Below, piece by piece: positions 1,970 through 63,520 of a stretch of 64,000 nt of DNA. Source of the DNA: an uncultured Pseudomonadota bacterium (GTDB taxonomy: Bacteria > Pseudomonadota > Alphaproteobacteria > Rs-D84); contig CADBBQ010000002.1 in NCBI GenBank assembly GCA_902793005.1, forward strand, positions 33,501 to 97,500, in the 5' to 3' direction. How positions within the stretch are numbered: position 1 is the first letter of the stretch; every line of letters starts with the position of its first letter. Below the pieces are notes generated by a model. That model was not told the origin of the DNA, ran no database searches, and was given only the letters and a program-made list of their open reading frames with translations. A program made the translations under genes and the position numbers.

Positions 1970-3952
1970 ATGGCACAGAAATATTTGATTACATCGGCTT
2001 TACCATATGTGAATGGCGAATTGCATTTGGGACATTTAATTGGATGCTGGTTGCCGTCTGATGTGTATGCGCGTTTTTGTCGCGCGCTGGGCCGCGATGT
2101 GTTATATATTGGTGGTGCCGATGAACACGGAACACCGGCGATTGTTGGCGCAATGCGTGAAAATATGCCTGTATTAGAATATACCAATAAATATTATGAA
2201 AAACAATTGCGGGCGGTGCGGGATTTTAATTTGTCTTTTGATTTATATGGACGCACACACACGGATTTACAAGAAAAATTGATTCACAAATTATTCAATC
2301 GTTTGCAAGACGAGGGACTGATTGAAGAACGCGAAACAATTCAACCGTACAGTGTCGATGACGGTATGTTCTTGGCCGACCGTCAATTAAATGGAACCTG
2401 TCCGAAATGCGGATATGAACGGGCCCGTGGTGACCAATGCGATAATTGCAGTGCGATTTACGAGGCAACCGAATTATTAAATCCGCGTTCGGCTATTTCG
2501 GGGTCAACCAATATTGAAATGCGCAAAACAAAAAATTTGTTCTTTTTGGCGTCTCGCGTCCAAGAAAAATGGCGCAATTGGTTGAAAACTCACGCGCCAA
2601 AATGGTCAAAAACCGCCGCCGCAATTGCAAATGGATGGGCGTCAGATGAATTGATGGATACTTCAATTACTCGCGATTTACCGTGGGGAATTCCGGTAAA
2701 CAAACCCGGATTCGAGGACAAGGTTTTCTATGTTTGGTTTGATGCGCCGTGGGGCTATGTTTCAATATCCCAGGCGGCAACAGACAATTGGGCCGATTGG
2801 TGGAAAAATCCCGATACCCACTATGCGCAATTTATGGGCAAGGATAATGTTAAATTTCACGCCGTATTTTTCCCAGAACAAGAATTGGCAATGGATGACA
2901 ATTGGAAAACAGTTGACCAATTAAAATCTATGAATTTTTTGAATTTTGATGGTGGAAAGTTTTCTAAATCTGAAAATCGTGGAATATTTTTAGACAGTGC
3001 TATTTCCATCGCGCCAAGCGATTGCTGGCGGTATGCGTTGCTGGCATCGGCACCGGAAACAGATGATACCGATTTTACTGTGCAAAAATTTGCGGAAATC
3101 GTGAATAAAGATTTGAACGGTATGTTGGGGAACTTTGTTTCACGCGTTTGCAAACTGACCGAAAAAAATTTTGGATTGACGGTCCCGGCGGCCGGAAAAA
3201 CCTACACCGATTTGGCAGATAAAATAAATGAAAAATTGGCGGATTTGACACGTGCGTTGGATGCTTGCGAATTTCGTGCGGCGATTTTTGCGCTGCGGTC
3301 GATGTATGCGATTGGTAATGAATATATGACGGAAACCGCGCCGTGGGCATTGGTCAAAGAAGGCAAGATGGACGATGCCGCAAATGCGTTGAATAATTGT
3401 TTTCAACTGATTGATTTGTATGCGCGTGTGTCGGCACCTTTTATGCCAACGACCGCAACAAAGATGCAAAATATTTTTGGCGTGACGCACGATTTGTCGT
3501 GGCCAACAAAATTCGAATCCAGAATCGCAAACGGTGAAAAATTTGCCGTGCCGGAAAATCTGTTCGAAAGAATTGACGATGCGCGCGTTGCCGAAATCAA
3601 CGAAAAATATTCGGCGAAACCAAAATCTGTTGCGCCGATTGTCGCGAAAATTTTAGAGGTTAAACCACACCCCAACCGCGAAAATCTGCATATTTTGACG
3701 GTGGATAGTGGCAACGACAAATTGCAAATTGTTTGTGGCGCACCAAATGTGCGTGTGGGATTGGTTGGCGTTCTGGCCCCGGTGGGATGCGTTTTGCCGG
3801 GCACACCTAAGCCTTTGTCGGCGCGTAATGTCGGTGGCGTTAAATCAAACGGTATGATGTGCAGTGCGTGTGAATTAGGCGTGGGTATGGACGCCACAAA
3901 AATTATTGAATTAGATGATACGGTTAAAATTGGTTCTGAATATAAAGGATAA
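1970..3952 (+). CDS. metG: Methionyl-tRNA synthetase with a C-terminal tRNA-binding domain
   Basis: HIGH-type motif ELHLGHL, KMSKS-type motif KFSKS, and a C-terminal KPHPNRENLHILTVD...VCGAPNV tRNA-binding domain. Confidence 0.95.
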   Translation: MAQKYLITSALPYVNGELHLGHLIGCWLPSDVYARFCRALGRDVLYIGGADEHGTPAIVGAMRENMPVLEYTNKYYEKQLRAVRDFNLSFDLYGRTHTDLQEKLIHKLFNRLQDEGLIEERETIQPYSVDDGMFLADRQLNGTCPKCGYERARGDQCDNCSAIYEATELLNPRSAISGSTNIEMRKTKNLFFLASRVQEKWRNWLKTHAPKWSKTAAAIANGWASDELMDTSITRDLPWGIPVNKPGFEDKVFYVWFDAPWGYVSISQAATDNWADWWKNPDTHYAQFMGKDNVKFHAVFFPEQELAMDDNWKTVDQLKSMNFLNFDGGKFSKSENRGIFLDSAISIAPSDCWRYALLASAPETDDTDFTVQKFAEIVNKDLNGMLGNFVSRVCKLTEKNFGLTVPAAGKTYTDLADKINEKLADLTRALDACEFRAAIFALRSMYAIGNEYMTETAPWALVKEGKMDDAANALNNCFQLIDLYARVSAPFMPTTATKMQNIFGVTHDLSWPTKFESRIANGEKFAVPENLFERIDDARVAEINEKYSAKPKSVAPIVAKILEVKPHPNRENLHILTVDSGNDKLQIVCGAPNVRVGLVGVLAPVGCVLPGTPKPLSARNVGGVKSNGMMCSACELGVGMDATKIIELDDTVKIGSEYKG

Positions 3953-10483: not shown

Positions 10484-10559
10484 GCCGGAATAGCTCAGCT
10501 GGTAGAGCATCTCATTCGTAATGAGGGGGTCGCAGGTTCAAGTCCTGTTTCCGGCACCA
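10484..10559 (+). tRNA. tRNA-Thr (anticodon CGU), CCA encoded
   Basis: Acceptor GCCGGAA/TTCCGGC, anticodon loop TTCGTAA, T-loop TTCAAGT. Length 76 nt. Confidence 0.9.
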
Positions 10560-10689: not shown

Positions 10690-11535
10690 TTATTTTTTAT
10701 TAAATCCTGGGGCCTCTTTTGCTAATTTTTTATCAGCACTTTTGACTCTGCGTTCAAGTTTTTTTATATCTTCTGCCGGGGGCAAAATCTCTGGTTTGAT
10801 TCCGCGATTAGCCAGCATTCCACGAACAGCCATATTGTTTTGTATATGTTCGTTTGTTATTGGTCGTTCGCCATATAAATCACTAGCACGCACATTGTGG
10901 TTTGTCATTTCTGTGGCCAAATTTTTAGCAGCAATAACAACCGTCGGCATAAAATCTGCAAGAGGTCTGTATTCTGGCGAACCGTATTTACGTTTCATTT
11001 CCAATGTGTTTTTACCACCAAACAATGCCATATCGCCCTTTGAACGAATTCTGGCAAAACCAGCGTCATCCACACCGCGTTCATATATTAATTTTGATAA
11101 TTCTGTTTCTGATGCAGTTAATTTAGCCCTAGCCTCCATACGTTCTGCCAAGGCAAGCCGTTCTTCAAGCACTTCTTGTTTGCGGGTTTGGATTGCAAAA
11201 TACGTTTGCGCAAAGGCAATTTCTTCTTTCCTGGGGTCTCCGTTTTGAGCAATTAAATAACAAGCATAACGAGTCAAAACAACATCTTCTATTGCTCTTT
11301 CAGAACCAGAACCTAACTTGACCATTTTGCTGACGTCAGCAAAATGGTTTTCCACTTGGATGCCGCTGTTTTGGCAAGATAATTTTGCTTTTTCTATAAT
11401 CTCATAAAAATTACGCCATTGAACGTATCCTAATAATATTTGCAATTCACGCGCAGACCAGCATTCAACACCTTGGTATTCAAATGCCGCGTCTTCAAAT
11501 TTTTTGTTTAAAAAGCTTACCAAACTTCTATCCAT
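10690..11535 (-). CDS. DNA-damage-inducible protein D (DinD)-like, with a KilA-N/Bro-N-type N-terminus
   Basis: The sequence pattern WSARELQ..LGY..W..F, the central coiled region and the C-terminal ...RGIKPE resemble the DinD family. Confidence 0.75.
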   Translation of the reverse strand: MDRSLVSFLNKKFEDAAFEYQGVECWSARELQILLGYVQWRNFYEIIEKAKLSCQNSGIQVENHFADVSKMVKLGSGSERAIEDVVLTRYACYLIAQNGDPRKEEIAFAQTYFAIQTRKQEVLEERLALAERMEARAKLTASETELSKLIYERGVDDAGFARIRSKGDMALFGGKNTLEMKRKYGSPEYRPLADFMPTVVIAAKNLATEMTNHNVRASDLYGERPITNEHIQNNMAVRGMLANRGIKPEILPPAEDIKKLERRVKSADKKLAKEAPGFNKK

Positions 11536-12222: not shown

Positions 12223-12498
12223 TTATTCATCGTATTCTGCATAAGGTGAACCTATGGCGCGTTCTTTGCCATAAAACACTTCTAATGCTTTAACATGCGC
12301 CTCTGTTATAAGTGCTTTTAATCCTAAAATATCCAACACAACCGCTGGAATAAAGATTAGTAGACCAAAAGTATATTGGGCATAATCATAACCGGCTGTA
12401 GTTACTAAAAATCCAGCCAAAGCGCCTATAAAAAAGGAAATAATAAACCACACATACCACTGTATTGGTTCCGTAATATTATTTTGTCTTTTTGCCAT
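12223..12498 (-). CDS. Small membrane protein with two TM segments (91 aa)
   Basis: The ATG at 12498 follows GGAGGA. The upstream extension of the track ORF would run through a terminator hairpin. Confidence 0.6.
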   Translation of the reverse strand: MAKRQNNITEPIQWYVWFIISFFIGALAGFLVTTAGYDYAQYTFGLLIFIPAVVLDILGLKALITEAHVKALEVFYGKERAIGSPYAEYDE

Positions 12499-12519
12499 GT
12501 TTTCCTCCATTCGTTCAAC

Positions 12520-12712
12520 ACAAAAACAAAAAACGCTCGTTGAAAAGCGAGCGGTTGGAGGTTCAGAACTATTGTAAGGTATAGTGTGTTTATTTTGCCA
12601 AAAAACGGCATTATTCACAGCCCTCCAACCACAATAGTTGGAGGATTTTACGTCCCCTCAGGACGCCTTACCCAGAGTTCTGACACTCAACAACGAAACA
12701 CCCGTTGTCGAT
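12520..12712 (-). ncRNA. Structured leader RNA, copy A: multi-helix junction, triple CUCCAACC/GGUUGGAG motif and an intrinsic terminator
   Basis: Long-range helices pair 12563-12570 with 12676-12683 and 12574-12579 with 12666-12671. Hairpins at 12622-12644 and 12651-12665. Terminator CGCUCG/CGAGCG plus a U-tract at 12520-12553. A paralogous architecture lies at 61299-61480. Confidence 0.55.
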
Positions 12713-12716
12713 TCCT

Positions 12717-12745
12717 ATTTTATCAAAAAAAATGATTATTTCCAA
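12717..12745 (-). promoter_or_regulatory. Sigma70-like promoter for leader RNA A (TTGGAA-17-TAAAAT)
   Basis: Hexamers read on the minus strand at 12745-12740 and 12722-12717. Confidence 0.4.
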
Positions 12746-13070: not shown

Positions 13071-13173
13071 ATTTTTGCCTTAGATTTCTTTAACAATAGC
13101 AATTTTTTGTATGATGTCAATTTTTTATAAAAAAAACTGGAAATAGGCAAAAACATATACTAATATTTGAATT

Positions 13174-13206
13174 ATGAACAAAAAAGAAATAATTATTATT
13201 AAATAA
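13174..13206 (+). CDS. Candidate ileS leader peptide MNKKEIIIIK (four consecutive Ile codons)
   Basis: Reads ATG AAC AAA AAA GAA ATA ATT ATT ATT AAA TAA. Lies 27 nt upstream of a terminator hairpin and 73 nt upstream of ileS. No SD, but TAATAT sits 7 nt upstream of the ATG, so it may be leaderless. Confidence 0.4.
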   Translation: MNKKEIIIIK

Positions 13207-13232
13207 TTGGCTCTGCGCTTTGGCGTATGGCC

Positions 13233-13255
13233 CGGGCGCGTATGCGCCCGTTTTT
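13233..13255 (+). terminator. Intrinsic terminator/attenuator hairpin CGGGCGC-GTAT-GCGCCCG followed by TTTTT
   Basis: 7-bp GC stem plus a T-run, ending 24 nt before the ileS ATG. Confidence 0.6.
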
Positions 13256-13278
13256 AATATAACTAAAAGGTATAAAAA

Positions 13279-16200
13279 ATGGCATATCCAAAAACCGAAC
13301 CCAAGGCTGACTTTACTGCAATCGAACATAAAGTTATGGAATTTTGGCGTGATGATGACACATTTCATAAATCTTTGAATAAAACAAAATTGGGACATCC
13401 GTTTTCTTTCTATGACGGGCCACCGTTTGCAAATGGTTTGCCGCACTGGGGGCACCTTGGGGTATCTGCGGTCAAAGATATGGTGTCGCGTTTCCACACT
13501 ATGCGTGGGGAATATGTTGAACGCGCGTTGGGTTGGGATTGCCACGGATTGCCGGCCGAAAATTCGGTTGAAAAAAAGCAAGGTCGCAGTGCCAAAGATA
13601 TTGTGGCATCGGACGGTATTGCGCATTTTTGTGATTTATGCGGGCGGGATGTTATGACATATTCGAACGAGTGGCTGCGTTATTTCGAACGTATGGGGCG
13701 TTGGGTTGATGGTGGCGATGATTTTGGTTATCGCACAATGGATAAAAATTTTATGGAATCTGTGATTTGGTGTTTGAAACAATTATATGACAAAGGTTTA
13801 TTATATAAAGATTTCAAAGTTAATCCATACGACTGGAAATTGGGAACGGTTCTGTCTAATTCCGAGGCGTCAAGTGAATACCAAGATATTGTCGATGATA
13901 CGGTGACGGTTTGGTTCGAACTGGAAAATGGCGACCGCGCGATTGCGTGGACAACAACACCGTGGACATTGCCGGCGAATTCTGCGTTGGCGGTGAATAA
14001 AAAAATGAAATATGTGCGCCTGCGCCACGATGATGGGCATATCTATGTTTTGGCAGAATCGCGCGTCAAAGCATATGAAAAGATTTTTGCAAATTCAGAA
14101 AATTTGGGAACGGTGATGGGTGCCGATTTGGTGGGAATGCACTATACGCCGATTTTCCCGTACTATACCGATTTGGCGACGGCGGGACACGGGCTGTACA
14201 CTGTGATTTCGGGCGATTATGTGTCCGATTCTGACGGTACCGGTATCGTGCATATTGCGCCAGCGTATGGTGAAGATGACTATATCGTTGCCAAGGCAAT
14301 CGACCCGCAATTCCCGATTATTTTAAATGTTGATGATTATGGTAATTTCGACAATACCGTCACAGAATGGGCGGGCGAAAATATTTTTGTCGCAAACCCA
14401 AAAATTATCGATTGGTTGCGCCAAACAGGTCGCTTGGTTCAAAAATCACAACACAAACACAGTTATCCGTTTGGCCCACGCAGCCACGAAAAACTGATTT
14501 ATCGTGCAACGGATTCGTGGTATATTGATGTGCCAAAGATTCGTGCGCGCTTGGTTGAAATAACAAAAAATGACACAACATGGACATCGGCCGGTAATCG
14601 GTTTATGTCGTGGATTGAAAACGCGCGTCCGTGGGGAATTTCACGCAATCGATTCTGGGGCGTGCCTTTGCCGATTTGGGAAAGAAATGGCGAGTATAAA
14701 ATATTTGGTTCTATCGCCGAATTGGAAGAATTTTTTGGCGTAAAAATCAATGATTTGCATCGCCCAACATTGGACAGGTTGGAACGCGACGGTTGGCACC
14801 GCATAACCGATGTTTTGGATTGCTGGGTGGAATCGGGTTCTATGCCGTTTGCGTCATTGCATTATCCGTTTGAGAATAAAGATTTGTTCGAAAAAACTTT
14901 CCCGGCGGATTATATTATCGAAGGCCAAGACCAAACACGCGGTTGGTTCTATGCGTTGATGGTGATTGCGGTTGCGTTGTTCGACAAACCTGCGTTCCGT
15001 GTTGTATCGGCAAACGGTATGATTGTTGATGAAAATAAACGCAAGTTTTCAAAATCATTGCATAACTTTGTTGACCCGACCGAGCAAATCGAAACATACG
15101 GTGCGGACGCAATTCGTTTGTTTATCTTGGGCAGTAATTTTATGAAGGCCGAACCCGTCAGTGTTGATAAAGAGGGCCGCGTGTTTAATGATACAATTAA
15201 AACAATATTAACACCGTTGTGGAACGCGTATCATTTTTGGACACTGTATGCAAACGCCGGAAATATTACGGCGGTGGCGGATGCGATATCAACAAATCCA
15301 CTGGATAAATACATTGTTGCCGAATTGAACGAAGTTATTCGCATAACAACAAACGCGTTGGATGAATATAAACCTGATATTGCCGTCAAAGAATTTGTTC
15401 GATTCTTGGATGTGTTAAACAATTGGTATATTCGTCGCGGACGCGCGCGTTTCTGGGACGAAGAACAAGACGCGTTTAACACACTGTATTATGTGTTGAC
15501 GGAATTTTGCAAGATATTGGCACCGTTCGCACCGTTTATTTCCGAACACATCTATAAAAATTTAACTGGTGCGGAATCGGTGCATTTGGCGGATTGGCCG
15601 GTGGCACAAGATATTGACCGCACTATTGTCAATGATATGCGCCGCGTGCAATCAATTGTGTCGGTTGGAAAACAGTTGCGCGAACAATATAAATTGCGTA
15701 ATCGTTTGCCATTAAAATCTGTGACAATTGCCGGGGCTGACGCACAACAATATGCAGATATTATTCGTGATGAATTAAATGTCAAAGATGTGAATTTCAT
15801 CAAAGATATTAAATCTGTGGCGGATTCATTTGTGTATTTAATCACACCGAAAATAGGTGCGCGCCTGGGTGCGGCGTTGCGTGAAATTGTGCCGGCCGTG
15901 AAACAGGGCAATTACAAAATCGATGGCGAAAAATTAGTTGTCGGCGAATATACATTGAACGCGGATGAATTTGAAAATCGTCTGACGGTGCGTGATGGTG
16001 TCACCGGTGCGGCGTTGCCGGACAATACAACCGTTGTTGTGTTGGATACCGAAATCACACCTGAATTGGTGCAAGAGGGTCTGGCAAATGACGCGTTGCG
16101 CTTTATCCAAGATTCACGCAAAAGCGCCGGCCTGGATGTGTCGGACAGAATAAAAATGGTCTATTCGGGTGATGATGAAATCGTTGCGGCGGTGGATGTG

Positions 16201-16317
16201 CATAACGCCCGCATTAAAAACGACGCGTTGATTGTTGAATTGGCGCGTGGTGCGGCCGCACAATTTACAACCGAAATCGAAGGTCATCCATTCGCAATAG
16301 ATATCAAAAAAGCATAA
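13279..16317 (+). CDS. ileS: Isoleucyl-tRNA synthetase, type 2 (eukaryote-like)
   Basis: YDGPPFANGLPHWGH (HIGH region), KFSKS, and 1012 aa length. Confidence 0.95.
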   Translation: MAYPKTEPKADFTAIEHKVMEFWRDDDTFHKSLNKTKLGHPFSFYDGPPFANGLPHWGHLGVSAVKDMVSRFHTMRGEYVERALGWDCHGLPAENSVEKKQGRSAKDIVASDGIAHFCDLCGRDVMTYSNEWLRYFERMGRWVDGGDDFGYRTMDKNFMESVIWCLKQLYDKGLLYKDFKVNPYDWKLGTVLSNSEASSEYQDIVDDTVTVWFELENGDRAIAWTTTPWTLPANSALAVNKKMKYVRLRHDDGHIYVLAESRVKAYEKIFANSENLGTVMGADLVGMHYTPIFPYYTDLATAGHGLYTVISGDYVSDSDGTGIVHIAPAYGEDDYIVAKAIDPQFPIILNVDDYGNFDNTVTEWAGENIFVANPKIIDWLRQTGRLVQKSQHKHSYPFGPRSHEKLIYRATDSWYIDVPKIRARLVEITKNDTTWTSAGNRFMSWIENARPWGISRNRFWGVPLPIWERNGEYKIFGSIAELEEFFGVKINDLHRPTLDRLERDGWHRITDVLDCWVESGSMPFASLHYPFENKDLFEKTFPADYIIEGQDQTRGWFYALMVIAVALFDKPAFRVVSANGMIVDENKRKFSKSLHNFVDPTEQIETYGADAIRLFILGSNFMKAEPVSVDKEGRVFNDTIKTILTPLWNAYHFWTLYANAGNITAVADAISTNPLDKYIVAELNEVIRITTNALDEYKPDIAVKEFVRFLDVLNNWYIRRGRARFWDEEQDAFNTLYYVLTEFCKILAPFAPFISEHIYKNLTGAESVHLADWPVAQDIDRTIVNDMRRVQSIVSVGKQLREQYKLRNRLPLKSVTIAGADAQQYADIIRDELNVKDVNFIKDIKSVADSFVYLITPKIGARLGAALREIVPAVKQGNYKIDGEKLVVGEYTLNADEFENRLTVRDGVTGAALPDNTTVVVLDTEITPELVQEGLANDALRFIQDSRKSAGLDVSDRIKMVYSGDDEIVAAVDVHNARIKNDALIVELARGAAAQFTTEIEGHPFAIDIKKA

Positions 16318-54102: not shown

Positions 54103-54749
54103 TGTTTGACGCAGAATGGTTTTGGGGGTTGGAGAAAACTTTGCGTGCGCAAGGTTTGGATTCTGATGATCAATCGTTTGATGAAATACGCGAAATGTTG
54201 GCGGCGCCAAAACGGTTGCCGCCTGAATCTTTTGCGGATGCGTGTGCGTATGTAATTTTGGCGGGTGGTTTTTCACAAAAGACTGCAAAGAAAATTCATA
54301 CTGTTATTTGTGAAGCGTTGCGTGCGGGGGCGGATGCGGACGCGTTGTTTCAAATTTTTCATAATAAAAATAAAATAAATGCTATTTATAAAATTTGGAA
54401 TAATCGACAAAGTATTTGTGATGATTTTTATGCGTGTAATGGCGATTTAGAAAAAATAAATTATTTGCAAAAATTGCCACACATTGGAAAGATTACTGCA
54501 AATCATTTGGCGCGAAATCTGGGGTGCAATGTTGTGAAATATGATGTTTGGATTCAAAGATTAGGCGTGCTGTATGCAGGAAATCCGGCGTTTTTTGCGT
54601 TGGTTGATAATAAAAAATTAAATCCACAGATTAAAAAATATTGTGATGCGATGTTTGCGCAATTGGAACAAGAAACAAATTTGCCACGCGGATATATTGA
54701 TGTTGTGTTGTTTCGTGCGGCACAAAATCATTTGATAGAAGGTTTATAA
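54102..54749 (+). CDS. HhH-motif protein, possibly DNA glycosylase-like
   Basis: LPHIGKITANHLARNLG helix-hairpin-helix motif. The start overlaps the gyrB stop (TAATG). Lies directly upstream of ung. Confidence 0.5.
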
Positions 54750-59063: not shown

Positions 59064-59131
59064 ATAAATATCAGTTGACAATTTTTATTTTTGGTGTATA
59101 TTAGGTTGGAAATTGTCAAATGGAGGTTTTT

Positions 59132-60883
59132 ATGCTGAACGAAACAGAACGCAAAGAAATTTTGACTATGTTGAAAAAATATGAATACGCCCACGATTGG
59201 CTGTCGGGCCATTATGGTTCGCGTCGTGCGCATATCGTTTGTGATAAATGTTATAATTTGGCGGGGCGGTATCTGCGTAAAATGAAAGATAATATGGACG
59301 CGATTTCTTCGTCGGATGTTAAATATTTTGCGTTAATCGTTGATACATTTGAACCAATGCGCAAAAACAGTTTGTTTGCCGAATTGCAAAAACACGCAGA
59401 TTTCGATGTTGTTGCGTTTGTCGATGGTTGCAATCGTGTTGGTGCTAAACGGATGTTGAAAAATAAAACGGACAGTGTTGTTGAAAAACGCGTCAAAGAT
59501 ATGGAAAAATCACGCGAAAAATACAAGTCTTTGTGTGAAAATATTTCCAAAGGCAATGGCATTGTTCGTAATTCCAGATTGGCCGAAAAATACAGACATG
59601 ATGCGTATGCATATGCACGCGCAATTGTTAAGGATGAAGTTTTGGTGTCTGATGAAAATTTGGATGCAACATATCATTATTTGAAAACAATTTGTTTCCC
59701 GTATGTTGATGGTGATGTTGCCGATTTGGCCAAGAAAAAGTTAGAAGACAGAATTAAAAACAAGTCAGATTTGGTGGATGTGAAAAAAACAGATAAAAAA
59801 GAAAAATCTGAGGTTCGCGGTTTCAAATTGGGATTGGGTGCAATGAAACAAAAATTTGCGGCACGTGCGAAATCTGTGTTTGATTCTGTTGTGGAAAATC
59901 GCAATAAAAAATCAGATGCGGATAAAAAATGGGACGAATTGGCCGCACAACAACACAAAGCACAACGCGATTTTGAACGCAGTTATAAAAAGCAAGAACG
60001 CGATCAGAAAAAACAAGAACGCGTCGAAAATCGCAAACAGAAAAAACAAAAAATTGTTAATTCGGTGTTAAATGGATATGGTGTTGTGGTAATCGGTCTG
60101 CAAAATTTACAAGACGAATTTAACAAAAAACGGGATGCGCGTCGTGCACAAAGATTGGCGCGTGAAACCGCAGAACAAAAACGCAAATCGGATGAAACCA
60201 AAACACAGCCAAAATTAAATGGAAAACATTGGTATCGTAATGTTATTCGCGTTGCGGTGCCGGTTGTTGGTTTGTTGGCAATTGGTTTGGGATTAAATGC
60301 GTTGAATGATAATATGGATAAAAAACAGCAAGCGCAGAAAAAAGAAGTCAAAGAAGTAAAAGCTGTTAAACAGACGCCTGTGGTTGTGAAAAATGATGCA
60401 AACAAAACAACCCAATCGTATGCGGCACCGATTGCGTATGACACGGCGTATATGACGGCGATGAATAACTATTGCAATTCGGCAATGGATGTTATTGCGG
60501 GCGAAAAACGCAAAAATGATGTTATGACAAAATTAAATAACCAAATTCAAAATGGTAATTTAGTGTTAAATGACACAATCAGTGTTGAACGCGTCGCATA
60601 TACGTATTTCATTTATCGCGAATATGGGTTTAATATCGATGTGTTGAATTTGGCCGTAAACGGTAATGAAAAATTGTCTGATGCACAACAGGCAGAATTG
60701 GTCAAGGTTATTCAAGATGCCGGTGAACGGGGCCGGGGTGTCCAAAAAATGGCGCGTGAACGTGTGGAATCGCGTGGTGGCAATTTAGGACATCACAGCA
60801 AATTTGAACACGCTACAAAAAAACAACAGCGTGCACTTTTGGTTAATCGCGGTGTGTTGAAAAAAGTGCAACACAACAGATAA
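59132..60883 (+). CDS. Large Lys/Glu-rich hypothetical protein with a single central TM segment
   Basis: ATG at 59132 after GGAGG. Highly charged K/E/R tract (KKQERDQKKQERVENRKQKKQK) and TM segment VAVPVVGLLAIGLGL. Confidence 0.6.
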   Translation: MLNETERKEILTMLKKYEYAHDWLSGHYGSRRAHIVCDKCYNLAGRYLRKMKDNMDAISSSDVKYFALIVDTFEPMRKNSLFAELQKHADFDVVAFVDGCNRVGAKRMLKNKTDSVVEKRVKDMEKSREKYKSLCENISKGNGIVRNSRLAEKYRHDAYAYARAIVKDEVLVSDENLDATYHYLKTICFPYVDGDVADLAKKKLEDRIKNKSDLVDVKKTDKKEKSEVRGFKLGLGAMKQKFAARAKSVFDSVVENRNKKSDADKKWDELAAQQHKAQRDFERSYKKQERDQKKQERVENRKQKKQKIVNSVLNGYGVVVIGLQNLQDEFNKKRDARRAQRLARETAEQKRKSDETKTQPKLNGKHWYRNVIRVAVPVVGLLAIGLGLNALNDNMDKKQQAQKKEVKEVKAVKQTPVVVKNDANKTTQSYAAPIAYDTAYMTAMNNYCNSAMDVIAGEKRKNDVMTKLNNQIQNGNLVLNDTISVERVAYTYFIYREYGFNIDVLNLAVNGNEKLSDAQQAELVKVIQDAGERGRGVQKMARERVESRGGNLGHHSKFEHATKKQQRALLVNRGVLKKVQHNR

Positions 60884-60884
60884 T

Positions 60885-60916
60885 AAAAAAGGTTGGTTTA
60901 AACGCCAACCTTTTTT
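60885..60916. terminator. Bidirectional intrinsic terminator (GGTTGG/CCAACC)
   Basis: Stem flanked by A6 and T6, between convergent ORFs. Confidence 0.7.
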
Positions 60917-61278
60917 ATAACTTTGTGTTCGTGTACAAATTCATAAACATTTTTTACGGCGATTGCGTTTATTGTATCCAAGTCATTAAAAATTGTTTTG
61001 CTTTTGATTTTTTGTTTTTTTTCGGCGACGACGGTTATGATAAGCATATTTAATTGAAATGGAAATTCGTCTGTCATTTCACGCAGTTTGAACGGATAAA
61101 ATATTAAAAATTTTTTTATAATTTCATCACGCATTTTATCAAATCGTGTTGCCGCAGATGCGTTTGGAATTTGTGCGCGAATTTCGGATAAATGTTTATT
61201 CATTATTTTTAATGGTTCTTGGTTTGCGGGGTCGGTAATTGTGTCGCCTTGGTAAAATATTTTTGGTAAACGTCGCAT
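60898..61278 (-). CDS. Hypothetical protein (126 aa) downstream of leader RNA B
   Basis: ORF with its ATG at 61278, about 20 nt after the leader terminator U-tract. No family recognised. Confidence 0.55.
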   Translation of the reverse strand: MRRLPKIFYQGDTITDPANQEPLKIMNKHLSEIRAQIPNASAATRFDKMRDEIIKKFLIFYPFKLREMTDEFPFQLNMLIITVVAEKKQKIKSKTIFNDLDTINAIAVKNVYEFVHEHKVIKKVGV

Positions 61279-61298: not shown

Positions 61299-61480
61299 GA
61301 AAAATAAAAAACCACTATGAAAAACATAAGTGGTTGGAGTTTTACATCTATGTCAAACGAAATAGCGTGCTTATTCAAATATATCACACACTCCAACCGA
61401 GGTTGGAGTGTTTTCAGTCCCTCCGGACTCGTTTGACGTGGAGTGTAAATCTCCAGCCCGGGAACTCCCCGTGCATAAGT
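61299..61480 (-). ncRNA. Structured leader RNA, copy B; same architecture as 12520-12712
   Basis: Helices pair 61336-61346 with 61444-61454 and 61452-61460 with 61429-61437. Hairpins at 61391-61408 and 61416-61429. Terminator CCACUUAUG/CAUAGUGG plus a U-tract at 61299-61332. Confidence 0.55.
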
Positions 61481-61741
61481 ATGCTATATTAATAAACATA
61501 AAAAATCAAGTGGGTTGTAATTTATCTTGCAAATGGGGATTTTTGATTATATCATAAATACATATTTTAAGGGCGCGATACCGATGAAGTGACTGACAAC
61601 CACGGAGGCATCAAAACCCAAAAACAAAAGTGATAAATTCGGGTGGCACCGCGCGGAAACTTCGCGCCCCGAAAATGAAAATTGTGGGTGCCAAAAATTT
61701 CATATTTTGTTGGTGCCCTGAGAATATAAAGGGTGTAAAAA

Positions 61742-63520
61742 ATGTTATCTTTGAAATCAAAATACAGAACGCATACTTGCGGTGAATTAAACATCAGTAA
61801 TGTTGGCGAAACTGTGACTTTGGCCGGGTGGGTGCATCGTAAACGCGACCACGGGTCTTTGTTGTTTGTGGATTTGCGCGATAATTATGGTATTACGCAA
61901 TGCGTGTTTGACGGGGGCGATGAAGTGTTGGAACGCATTCGTCCGGAATCTGTGGTGCAAATTACTGGCAAAGTTGTTGCGCGTGATTTGGATGCAATTA
62001 ATGAAAAAATCCCAACCGGACATATCGAAATCCAGGCAAAGGCGGCGGACGTTAAAATTTTAACAAATGCCGAGGTTTTGCCTTTCCAGGTGTTTGGCGA
62101 TGAAGAAACATCCGAAGAATTGCGGTATAAATATCGGTTCTTGGATTTGCGCCGTGAACGGTTGCACTATAATATTTTGATGCGCAATAAAATGATGAAG
62201 TGGTTAAGGGACAAAATGTGGGATTTGGGTTTTTCGGAATTCCAAACACCGCTGTTGACCGCGGATTCGCCCGAGGGCGCACGCAGTTTCTTGGTGCCGT
62301 CGCGTCTGCATCACGGTAAATTTTATGCGTTGCCCCAGGCACCACAGATGTTTAAACAATTATTACAGGTGTCTGGATTTGACCGGTATTTCCAAATTGC
62401 GCCGTGTTTCAGAGATGAAGATTTGCGCGCCGACAGATTGTTGGAATTTTATCAGTTGGATATGGAAATGTCTTTTGTTGATGTCCCAGATATCCAGGCC
62501 GTTGGCGAGGCAATTATGCCGGAATTGGTTAAAACTTTTGCGCCGGACGCCAATGTGTATCCAACAATTCCACATATTTCGTATGATGACGCAATGTTGA
62601 AATATGGTTGCGATAAACCGGATTTGCGTAATCCTATTTTAATTTCGGATGTGACGGAAATTTTCCGTGGGTCTGAATTTGGAATCTTTGCAAATGCGAT
62701 TGAATCGGGTGCGGTGGTGCGTGCGGTGCCGGCGCCAAAAACGGCCGATAAACCGCGTTCTTGGTTTGATAAATTGGGCGAATATGCAACCCGCGAATTG
62801 GGGTTGGGGGGATTAGGCTATATCATTTTTGCCGATGAAGCCAAGGGCCCGGTTGCCAAAAAATTGGATGCGGCGCGCATTGCAAAATTGAAAGACATTG
62901 CGGGCGATAATGCGTCTATATTCTTTATTTGTGATACGGTGGATAATGCGGCACGTGCCGCGGGCAAATTGCGTAATAAATTGGGTGCAGATTTGGGATT
63001 GGTCAATCCGCGTGATTTTGCATTTTGCTGGGTCGATAATTTCCCGTTCTTTGAACCGGATGAAGACCGTGGTGGTGCGCCGAAATTTACGCATAATCCG
63101 TTTTCGTATCCGATTATTGATTCGGTTGAAGAATTATCAACGCGCGACCCATTTTCTATCAAGGCGGCACAATTCGATATGGTGTTGAACGGTATCGAAA
63201 TTTGCAGTGGTGGATTGCGCAACTATAACCCGGATGTGATGAAAAAATGTTTTGAAATCGCCGGTTATCCATTAGAGGCCGTCGAGAAAAACTTTTCTGG
63301 ATTATACACTGCGTTTCAATATGGTGCGCCACCACACGGCGGTTGTGCGTTCGGTATTGAACGCGTGGTGTCGGAAATTTTGGGCATCGGCGACAGTGTT
63401 CGTGAAATCGTTGCGTTCCCGGCAAATCAACGCGGTCAAGATTTGTTGATGGGCAGCCCTAACGAGGTTTCCGAACAACAATTGCGTGATGTGCATATTC
63501 AAATCCGCAAGAAAAATTAA
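61742..63520 (+). CDS. aspS: Aspartyl-tRNA synthetase (bacterial type)
   Basis: Class II motifs FQIAPCFRDEDLRADR and GGCAFGIERV, with a GAD insertion domain. Confidence 0.95.
   Translation: MLSLKSKYRTHTCGELNISNVGETVTLAGWVHRKRDHGSLLFVDLRDNYGITQCVFDGGDEVLERIRPESVVQITGKVVARDLDAINEKIPTGHIEIQAKAADVKILTNAEVLPFQVFGDEETSEELRYKYRFLDLRRERLHYNILMRNKMMKWLRDKMWDLGFSEFQTPLLTADSPEGARSFLVPSRLHHGKFYALPQAPQMFKQLLQVSGFDRYFQIAPCFRDEDLRADRLLEFYQLDMEMSFVDVPDIQAVGEAIMPELVKTFAPDANVYPTIPHISYDDAMLKYGCDKPDLRNPILISDVTEIFRGSEFGIFANAIESGAVVRAVPAPKTADKPRSWFDKLGEYATRELGLGGLGYIIFADEAKGPVAKKLDAARIAKLKDIAGDNASIFFICDTVDNAARAAGKLRNKLGADLGLVNPRDFAFCWVDNFPFFEPDEDRGGAPKFTHNPFSYPIIDSVEELSTRDPFSIKAAQFDMVLNGIEICSGGLRNYNPDVMKKCFEIAGYPLEAVEKNFSGLYTAFQYGAPPHGGCAFGIERVVSEILGIGDSVREIVAFPANQRGQDLLMGSPNEVSEQQLRDVHIQIRKKN

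Follow-up and report, generated by a model that had tools for sequence, protein, structure and literature searches.

The minus strand of a 64,000-nucleotide (nt) stretch of DNA from an uncultured alphaproteobacterium (contig CADBBQ010000002.1, positions 33,501 to 97,500; hereafter the window) carries two leader loci, copy A and copy B, which belong to one RNA family (Table 1). We consider it about 80% probable that each is a cis-acting 5′ RNA that controls the downstream gene by transcription attenuation, that it belongs to a large family not described before, and that it works as a new terminator/antiterminator switch whose default state is off. With its two conserved and mutually exclusive folds, the ~170-nt leader is very probably a new kind of gene switch. 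The family represents a new class within the known mechanism of terminator/antiterminator leaders, and its nearest counterparts in logic are the T-box and the protein-dependent antiterminator leaders. Both window copies and 121 of 124 members display the general make-up of an intrinsic-terminator attenuator, comprising a promoter, a structured leader, a GC-rich hairpin with a U-tract and a co-directional gene. In addition, the family maintains an alternative helix that is exclusive with the terminator, as seen in the shared AACC segment, a covarying ninth base pair and a triple change in one diverged copy (L069).

An original prediction, made from the window alone, had described copy A as a structured minus-strand leader with its own promoter and intrinsic terminator. 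A base-by-base check of the minus strand agrees with each of its copy-A coordinates, and the promoter scan, the minimum free energy (MFE) fold and the strand-specific model scores bear the description out. The promoter reads TTGGAA-17-TAAAAT with an upstream TG, and the 193-nt stretch folds at -68.2 kcal/mol (z = -5.1; 0 of 200 shuffles as good) into exactly the helices that had been listed. Copy B was indeed found to have the same architecture built from different helix sequences, with an MFE z-score of -6.4. Two of the earlier claims had to be amended. The two loci are real, but they are not a two-copy curiosity ahead of small membrane-protein genes, as at least 136 copies precede very diverse genes. 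The tail CCUCCAACC, said to abut the terminator hairpin, is placed exactly in copy A but in fact overlaps the terminator stem. Beyond that description, two more conserved local hairpins and a G-rich 5′ segment join the switch.

Relatives were collected with a search pattern derived from copies A and B together with L004, a diverged variant of A, which matched at least 120 stretches in a collection of species-representative genomes. A covariance model was built from 20 sequences of other genomes with the window copies left out. With this model, copy A reaches 105.6 bits (E ~1e-23) and copy B 94.2 bits (E = 5e-21), against 10.7 and 20.5 bits for the respective opposite strands, making the strand call unambiguous. 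In ~1 Mb of fetched DNA the model finds at least 136 copies (110 + 26), several of which the pattern had missed, and it rejects one pattern match (L094) as a chance occurrence. An exhaustive model search with filters off revealed no further copy in the 64-kb window. The motif CTCCAACC occurs six times in the window compared to 0.96 expected, and five of the six lie inside the two loci. Motif matches at 54127 and 31021 (CTCCAAC) were dismissed as chance, being inside coding sequence and devoid of the architecture.

Each member has a similar organization. The -10 box (TATAAT in 54 copies, TAAAAT in 27) sits 27 ± 1 nt upstream of the G-rich segment X1, and from this fixed distance the RNA is deduced to begin at P0. 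The 5′ part consists of P0, X1 (GRGG), the 5′ strands of P1 and P1b, P2 and an A-rich joiner, followed by P3 (Y1 CUCCAAC, a loop and X2 GGUUGGAGG), P4 with its GAAUA...AAUAA sequences and CUAU. The 3′ part comprises the 3′ strand of P1b, AUAG, the 3′ strand of P1, a single A, Y2 (CCUCCAACC) and the terminator. In the nested OFF fold, the long-range helices P1 and P1b close a junction that bears P2, P3 and P4. In a structure-aware alignment of 110 copies, 97.6% of 3652 cells pair in this fold compared to 71.7% in shuffles, pair counts that are inflated by the fitting of the alignment to the OFF structure. Double-sided changes number 968 versus 254 in shuffles, and the covariation score is 0.681 versus 0.185 shuffled, dropping to 0.09 or less with partners slid by 1-3 columns. 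The compensatory changes that had been noticed between the two window copies thereby extend to 110 sequences with overwhelming covariation. At the level of single helices, all seven modelled pairs of P0 covary (95.1% of cells pair), as do six of seven in P1 (99.6%), six of six in P1b (97.6%) and four of four in P2, and the sequence of P3 is nearly invariant across the family. P4 was modelled with two pairs only, both loop-proximal and covarying, because the register of its stem differs between copies and subclasses. A raw anchor-based and alignment-free parse, which is independent of the fit to the OFF structure, found 49 different P1 sequences and perfect complementarity of this helix in 121 of the 123 copies. 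This parse and the covariance-model alignment replaced RNAalifold on a raw MAFFT alignment of 123 copies, in which the variable helices are misaligned, so that nothing but the invariant X2:Y2 duplex was retrieved. Positions conserved in at least 90% of copies are concentrated in the switching segments and helices and in the 3′ half; P2 is dispensable and P4 tolerates large insertions, such as the inserted hairpin (UGCC...GGCA) of copy A. A subclass found before a small XRE-like family (~70-78 residues) has a distinct P0 (GCAUUGGGAAACCGGUGU; loci L020, L025, L031, L037, L038, L048, L050, L054, L065, L069:199-351, L084, L098, L110 and L114), and about half of it (L025, L031, L037, L038, L048, L050, L065 and L114) lacks P2 and has a three-way junction.

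The pattern of variation also bears on whether the family is an RNA at all. Its paralogous helices vary freely yet stay paired, and many of their G:U pairs would be A:C on the other strand, which makes it highly improbable that we are dealing with a repeated DNA element, similar to miniature inverted-repeat transposable elements or repetitive extragenic palindromes, or with an array of XRE operators. The multiple copies, the XRE-family helix-turn-helix (HTH) proteins that form the commonest annotated cargo, and the proximity of some copies to tRNA genes and integrases would suit such an element. The strongly strand-specific model scores, the fixed position and orientation relative to promoter, terminator and gene, and the absence of terminal inverted repeats from every copy read all speak for an RNA device.

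Three additional helices (Hx, H and the antiterminator) are incompatible with P1, P1b and P3, yet 98.2% of their cells pair, and their covariation of 0.133, compared to 0.057, was reached by 0 of 500 shuffles. Hx joins X1 to CCYC just after the P1 5′ strand, and its covarying position is occupied by A:U in 25, G:C in 74, G:U in 22 and A:C in 0 copies. H is formed by UAU...AUA around the P1b 3′ strand, with pair 282:306 being U:A in 72 and A:U in 32 sequences (4 exceptions). The antiterminator is an unbulged GGUUGGAGG:CCUCCAACC duplex between X2 and Y2, whose ninth pair is G:C in 108 sequences and U:A in 12 (3 exceptions; 95-108 and 11-12, respectively, across the separate counts; copy B is of the U:A class); the equivalent position in P3 is often mismatched. 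According to a rough neighbour-joining tree, the changes in Hx, H and the antiterminator arose ~47, ~18 and ~11 times, respectively. Moreover, the minus-strand copy L069:7576-7778 has changed Y1 (CUCCUGA), X2 (UCAGGAGG) and Y2 (CCUCCUGACC) together, replacing CAAC with CUGA twice, in Y1 and Y2, and GUUG with UCAG in X2. This copy keeps its promoter, terminator, Shine-Dalgarno (SD) sequence and signal-peptide gene, and has a large insertion in P2. The proposal that GUUGGAGG can pair with either CCUCCAAC copy, which had been put forward as the logic of a switch, thus gains direct comparative support, including the antiterminator covariation and the triple change of L069.

The antiterminator and the terminator would compete for shared nucleotides. 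The 5′ arm of the terminator starts within the AACC of Y2 in 93 of 95 cleanly folded copies, the overlap amounts to 4 nt in most copies (AACC:GGUU), and the antiterminator can be extended by 1-4 base pairs (bp) further into this arm in 82 of 123 copies. In copy A the 3′ end of Y2 is the start of the terminator stem, an overlap of 1 nt, and in copy B the first two C of the terminator are the last two bases of Y2. Elsewhere in copy A, the P1 5′ strand falls in the loop of Hx, X1 alternatively pairs with CCUC of the 3′ tail, and H and P1b are mutually exclusive.

Folding of the whole leader through the U-tract gave an MFE structure with closed junction, P3 and terminator in 113 of 113 copies, usually with X1 also paired with the tail CCUC. 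Forcing the antiterminator costs a median of 12.9 kcal/mol (interquartile range 10.2-15.9), and the forced optimum forms Hx and H unprompted. The OFF fold is predicted to be the thermodynamic default state. We propose that transcription starts at the conserved promoter just 5′ of P0. In the OFF fold, the 5′ half would zip onto the 3′ half, with P1 and P1b closing the junction of P2, P3 and P4 and with X1 pairing to the tail CCUC and stacking on P1. P3 (Y1:X2) would lock up GGUUGGAGG and therefore leave the tail AACC free to start the terminator hairpin, and RNA polymerase would halt ~30 nt upstream of the start codon. In the ON fold, each half would fold on itself, with Hx holding X1 and the P1 5′ strand, and H holding the P1b 3′ strand. 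X2 GGUUGGAGG and the Y2 tail CCUCCAACC would form an antiterminator of at least 9 bp that takes away the 5′ arm of the terminator, so that the polymerase would read into the gene. The decision would hinge on the closure of P1/P1b. Once these are closed, X1 would adjoin the tail and block invasion of P3, which would persist while the terminator forms; once they are open, the emerging tail could gain a toehold at the unpaired ninth base of X2, displace Y1 and tie up the terminator arm. Switching ON would need an outside input.

A simpler device would dispense with that input. A constitutive attenuator or insulator without effector, allowing low and perhaps stochastic read-through or responding only to general polymerase speed, nucleoside triphosphate supply or Nus factors, is in keeping with an OFF fold that is the MFE in every copy, with an effector not having been found, and with the accessory, surface or island-like nature of the downstream genes. 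We regard it as improbable. Selection preserves one particular alternative fold, as seen in Hx, H, the antiterminator and the triple change, and this is difficult to reconcile with an ON state that is never actively occupied; moreover, ~170 nt of conserved structure goes far beyond what a simple attenuator needs.

The relation to the downstream gene argues for an action in cis. A U-tract (at least four U within 70 nt) follows 121 of 124 copies, the terminator hairpin has a median energy of -9.7 kcal/mol, and the end of the U-tract lies a median of 32 nt before a co-directional start codon. This spacing leaves no room for another promoter, and the downstream gene would accordingly be expressed only by read-through. 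With strand-agnostic gene calls, the nearest downstream gene is on the same strand in 84 cases and on the opposite strand in 21 (p = 4e-10), the exceptions being mostly cargo genes of fewer than 80 codons left uncalled. Compared to this arrangement, stand-alone small RNAs that act in trans, targeting mRNAs through their anti-Shine-Dalgarno-like CCUCC while the downstream genes are incidental or separately expressed, are a poor fit. The discrete unit of ~175-190 nt with promoter and strong terminator and the two CCUCC-containing motifs per RNA would be expected of small RNAs, and terminated riboswitch transcripts act in trans in other bacteria. Besides the close co-directional start codon, the missing promoter room and the orientation bias, the conserved and covarying antiterminator that overlaps the terminator would be purposeless in a pure small RNA, and the CCUCC motifs are base-paired in the MFE fold; we thus hold this explanation to be quite unlikely.

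The 121 downstream proteins fall into 56 clusters, and ~58% of them have an N-terminal hydrophobic signal. Pfam matching covered 114 downstream proteins, most of which match nothing. Among the annotated ones, XRE-type HTH proteins are the commonest (HTH_31 in 12, HTH_19 in 7 and HTH_3 in 4 cases), followed by Listeria-Bacteroides surface repeats in 5; EcoRI-type and N6/N4 DNA methylases, a UvrD helicase, a RecF/AbiEii-like ATPase and an outer-membrane β-barrel also occur. Taken as a whole, the cargo does not form a metabolic pathway and consists of orphan proteins, secreted or at the surface, together with XRE regulators and DNA methylases. In copy A, it is a 91-residue protein, credited with two transmembrane segments in the original prediction, with one evident hydrophobic stretch, no Pfam match above cut-off and no PHROG match, which is found identical behind the same leader on 12 metagenomic contigs. 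The 126-residue protein of copy B likewise has no Pfam or PHROG family.

Several points weigh against a default-off switch. Termination, read-through and the ON fold are all deduced from sequence; each of the alternative helices is backed by just one or two covarying pairs, and the OFF pair counts are raised by the alignment, as mentioned above. Since the ON fold is ~13 kcal/mol less stable, it may be rare. In copy A, where tail and terminator share only one base, the antiterminator would be expected to weaken the terminator less than in most copies. Moreover, the search for a partner was negative on two fronts: in the ~1 Mb, the motif and its complement occur outside the leaders at or below chance, offering no complementary trans RNA, and clustering of all neighbourhood open reading frames found no recurrent gene for an RNA-binding protein near the leaders, only cargo families, XRE genes, an integrase in seven loci and housekeeping genes.

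Comparison with known RNA families was in line with the view, already held in the original prediction, that the element has no known class, and each named family that was compared differs from it in a defining trait. At gathering score, Rfam 15 gives five tRNAs only in the window, and tRNA and rRNA only in 18 further loci with family members; scans of both window loci at E <= 10 yielded only chance-level matches on the element, such as Bacilli-1 at 12.7 bits against a cut-off of 55.6. The T-box leaders (RF00230) resemble the present family in their long 5′ leader, their several copies per genome and a default terminator more stable than the competing antiterminator. Read-through in T-boxes requires a macromolecular effector stabilising the antiterminator, as may also be the case here, and a T-box-like element is present in the same window, ahead of aspS. 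However, the T-box covariance model is silent on our element, which lacks a T-box sequence, a UGGN bulge and a specifier-like position varying with the gene. The T-box sequence (…GGGUGGNACCGCG…) is absent from both elements, its GGUGGNACCNCG core being found in the window only at 61642-61653 on the plus strand, and amino-acid genes are absent from the 114 downstream proteins. A T-box relative was rejected on the model signal and the core, despite the neighbouring T-box-like leader on the opposite strand.

The leaders controlled by BglG/SacY (at ribonucleic antiterminators, RATs), ANTAR proteins, PyrR and LoaP share a sequence-conserved antiterminator whose 3′ part overlaps the 5′ arm of the terminator and which is intrinsically weaker than the terminator. 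In addition, the targets of LoaP, RfaH and UpxY can be accessory or surface-structure operons, reminiscent of the cargo described here. By contrast, the present leader is far larger and employs a whole 5′ domain as anti-antiterminator; its antiterminator is a long-range 9-bp helix enclosing two hairpins instead of a RAT or dual-hexaloop hairpins, and no cognate protein has been identified or is encoded nearby. The arrangement typical of ANTAR, two adjacent hexaloop hairpins with the second overlapping the terminator, is not seen, the overlapping strand belonging to the long-range 9-bp helix. Attenuators of the trp/his type also consist of a chain of mutually exclusive pairings ending in an intrinsic terminator, which in the present leader runs from X1:Hx or X1:Y2 through Y1:X2 and X2:Y2 to Y2:terminator, but this leader has no leader peptide and possesses a covarying multi-helix junction. 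A leader peptide was rejected, as the distance from X2 to the tail is 65, 66, 67, 68, 69 or 70 nt and the G-rich 5′ segment does not regularly supply a start codon; because this distance varies over 65-70 nt and the segments by 1-2 nt, there is no conserved reading frame.

Cyclic di-GMP-I (GEMM) riboswitches occur in many copies per genome before diverse surface, secreted or regulatory genes and often have terminator platforms. Our family also exists in many copies per genome ahead of diverse, often uncharacterised genes and uses a terminator platform, but it matches no Rfam model of this kind, and its architecture and conserved nucleotides are unrelated. The likeness raises the possibility, which we judge doubtful, of a classic riboswitch for a small molecule, ion or second messenger, in which a junction aptamer binds the ligand and shifts the balance between P1/P1b closure and the antiterminator. 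A three- or four-way junction closed by P1, with purine-rich joiners (AAAA, G, CUAU) and a terminator platform, is what such an aptamer would look like, and many copies per genome before heterogeneous surface or secreted genes are known from c-di-GMP riboswitches. No protein gene is linked to the leaders. In hosts with genomes below 1 Mb (PMC12306168), regulation free of proteins would be economical. On the other hand, the positions conserved in at least 90% of copies do not gather in a junction pocket but are concentrated in the 3′ half and the switching helices. Moreover, the leader can do without P2, P4 accepts large insertions, the OFF fold is ahead by ~13 kcal/mol even when no ligand is present, and the downstream genes indicate no metabolite.

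As to the input, our guess, at a little short of even odds, is a macromolecule that acts in trans. The likeliest candidate would be an antiterminator protein that binds RNA, holding either the 5′ domain or the three-way domain of antiterminator, P4 and H. A small ligand or second messenger is a tentative guess, and the lack of any dedicated effector an unlikely one. The slight tilt toward a macromolecular antiterminator comes from the conservation pattern, the dispensable P2, the insertions in P4 and the accessory and surface gene set.

The hosts of the leader are ~80 assemblies, all gut, rumen or termite metagenome-assembled genomes (MAGs), nearly all of them labelled Candidatus (Ca.) Enterousia (order Rs-D84), Alphaproteobacteria or 'Rickettsiales'. 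A single MAG has up to six copies among the matches listed, and together with the two copies per 64 kb this suggests that the leaders precede on the order of 10-30 genes per genome. Two high-scoring members come from other labels, namely L007 (102 bits) in a Muribaculaceae-labelled MAG and L021 (105 bits) in a Bacteroides fragilis-labelled bin. They are bona fide copies, the latter nearly identical to copies in the Alphaproteobacteria MAGs L010 and L073, and binning contamination is the likeliest explanation, rather than presence in Bacteroidota. Only three pattern matches were found in 2.9 million viral contigs, two of which are real and identical to each other; given this rarity, a phage element was rejected. 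These two IMG/VR contigs, L126 (12019-12172) and L127 (767-920), carry an identical, full-scoring leader (121 bits), which in L126 precedes a 316-residue homolog of a surface-protein family that is associated with the leaders; an EcoRI-like methylase and a PLD-type nuclease are encoded next to it. They may be prophage or misclassified host DNA.

Ca. Enterousia and its order Rs-D84 are uncultured gut and rumen bacteria. Members of this order have genomes below 1 Mb, are devoid of the tricarboxylic acid cycle, respiration and standard transporters, and encode many hypothetical, unexplained membrane proteins (PMC12306168). A full-text literature search found neither the motif in a relevant context nor RNA elements described in this clade, although its coverage was incomplete and absence is unproven. 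With an estimated ~10-30 genes behind it, most of which encode small XRE regulators, DNA methylases or orphan proteins that are secreted or at the surface, this one device would form a major part of the regulatory repertoire of Enterousia/Rs-D84 and offer a handle on the control of the cell surface. We tentatively suggest, as a reading that could well prove wrong, that a new regulatory system senses its input through this leader, either as a riboswitch of a new class that reads a global signal or as the site at which a new RNA-binding antiterminator acts, and that the leader is the master switch that turns on the surface proteome and the accessory genes (~10-30 genes). If true, a four-segment "frozen" switch would swap inter-domain for intra-domain pairing in gut Alphaproteobacteria that are ultra-small and probably depend on a partner. 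To RNA biology the leaders offer a well-supported orphan family in which, as is rarely the case, sequence comparison speaks for both states of a switch, and identification of the effector would reveal a new ligand class or a new antitermination factor.

Table 1. Features of the two leader loci, in window coordinates (position 1 is the first nucleotide of the window).
Feature	Position	Strand	Basis	Remarks
Copy A leader	12553-12712	minus		
Copy A promoter	12717-12745	minus	scan and sequence	-35 TTGGAA 12740-12745; extended -10 TGnTAAAAT 12717-12725
Copy A P0	12687-12711	minus	MFE fold	5′-terminal hairpin, 10 bp, loop GUGUU
Copy A X1 (GAG)	12686-12688	minus		pairs with CUC 12675-12677 to form local hairpin Hx (12675-12688)
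Copy A P1	12676-12683 with 12563-12570	minus	sequence and MFE fold	long-range
Copy A P1b	12666-12671 with 12574-12579	minus	sequence and MFE fold	long-range
Copy A P2	12651-12665	minus	sequence and MFE fold	hairpin CGUCC-UGAGG-GGACG
Copy A P3	12622-12644	minus	sequence and MFE fold	anti-antiterminator; Y1 CCUCCAAC 12637-12644 with X2 GGUUGGAGG 12622-12630
Copy A P4	12585-12619	minus	fold and model	stem UGUG/CACA; conserved GAAUA...AAUAA loop sequences
Copy A H	12569-12584	minus		CUAU 12581-12584 with AUAG 12569-12572; encloses P1b 3′ strand
Copy A Y2 tail CCUCCAACC	12553-12561	minus		third motif copy; antiterminator partner of X2
Copy A terminator	12534-12553	minus	scan and MFE fold	CGCUCG-CUUUUCAA-CGAGCG, then U6-G-U5 12522-12533; U-tract ends at 12522, 23 nt upstream of ATG
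Copy A regulated gene	12223-12508	minus		91 aa; includes SD GGAGGA 12503-12508; ATG 12498
Copy B leader	61332-61478	minus	covariance model	
Copy B P0	61459-61471	minus		
Copy B X1 (UGGAG)	61451-61455	minus		local partner CUCCA 61439-61443
Copy B P1	61444-61449 with 61341-61346	minus		
Copy B P1b	61429-61437 with 61352-61360	minus		
Copy B P2	61417-61428	minus		
Copy B P3	61389-61410	minus		X2 GGUUGGAGU 61390-61398
Copy B H	CUAU 61362-61365 with AUAG 61348-61351	minus		
Copy B Y2	61332-61340	minus		A-CUCCAACC
Copy B terminator	61306-61333	minus		CCACUUAUG-UUUUU-CAUAGUGG and U6
Copy B regulated gene	60898-61278	minus		126-aa orphan protein; ATG 61278; 27 nt after U-tract

Further analysis of the neighbourhoods revealed tRNA genes 70-125 nt upstream of 11 of 122 leaders compared to ~2.4 expected (for example L004, L024, L041, L078 and L121), and a tyrosine-integrase family that recurs in seven leader neighbourhoods. 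In the window, a Bro-N / phrog_8036 gene (10690-11535) lies near copy A, and a tRNA-Thr gene is located at 10484-10559. The tRNA proximity, the recurring integrase and the Bro-N / phrog_8036 gene suggest that many units of leader and cargo sit in island-like or integrated regions. On the plus strand of locus L107, two leaders (3394-3534 and 3587-3735) stand in direct tandem before one XRE gene. The upstream copy has the same P1/P1b sequences as the downstream copy, a mutated tail (CUCCAGCC) and no terminator; a functional tandem switch was rejected on account of this tail and the absent terminator, and the upstream copy is probably a recent duplication that is now decaying.

Two divergent genes next to the window copies may have leaders of their own. 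Upstream of ileS (13279-16317, plus strand), the region 13085-13282 contains a GC-rich hairpin with U5 (13233-13250), 28 nt before the start codon, which suggests another attenuator, divergent from copy A; this region has no Rfam match, and its fold z-score is a modest -2.4. Divergent from copy B, a T-box-like leader (61488-61674, plus strand) precedes aspS (61742-63520). It scores 33.4 bits with RF00230 (E = 8.6e-6), well under the gathering score of 93, but its positions 61642-61653 form a perfect T-box core (GGUGGCACCGCG). In Alphaproteobacteria, T-boxes are unusual. On the other side of copy B, its 126-residue protein gene is convergent with a plus-strand gene (59120-60883) for a 587-residue Lys/Gln-rich protein, and a near-perfect palindrome of 14-15 bp between them (AUAAAAAAGGUUGG...CCAACCUUUUUUAU, 60883-60918) looks like a bidirectional terminator. 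The 587-residue protein has a central hydrophobic segment and no Pfam or PHROG family, and it is typical for this genome, which is rich in orphan proteins.

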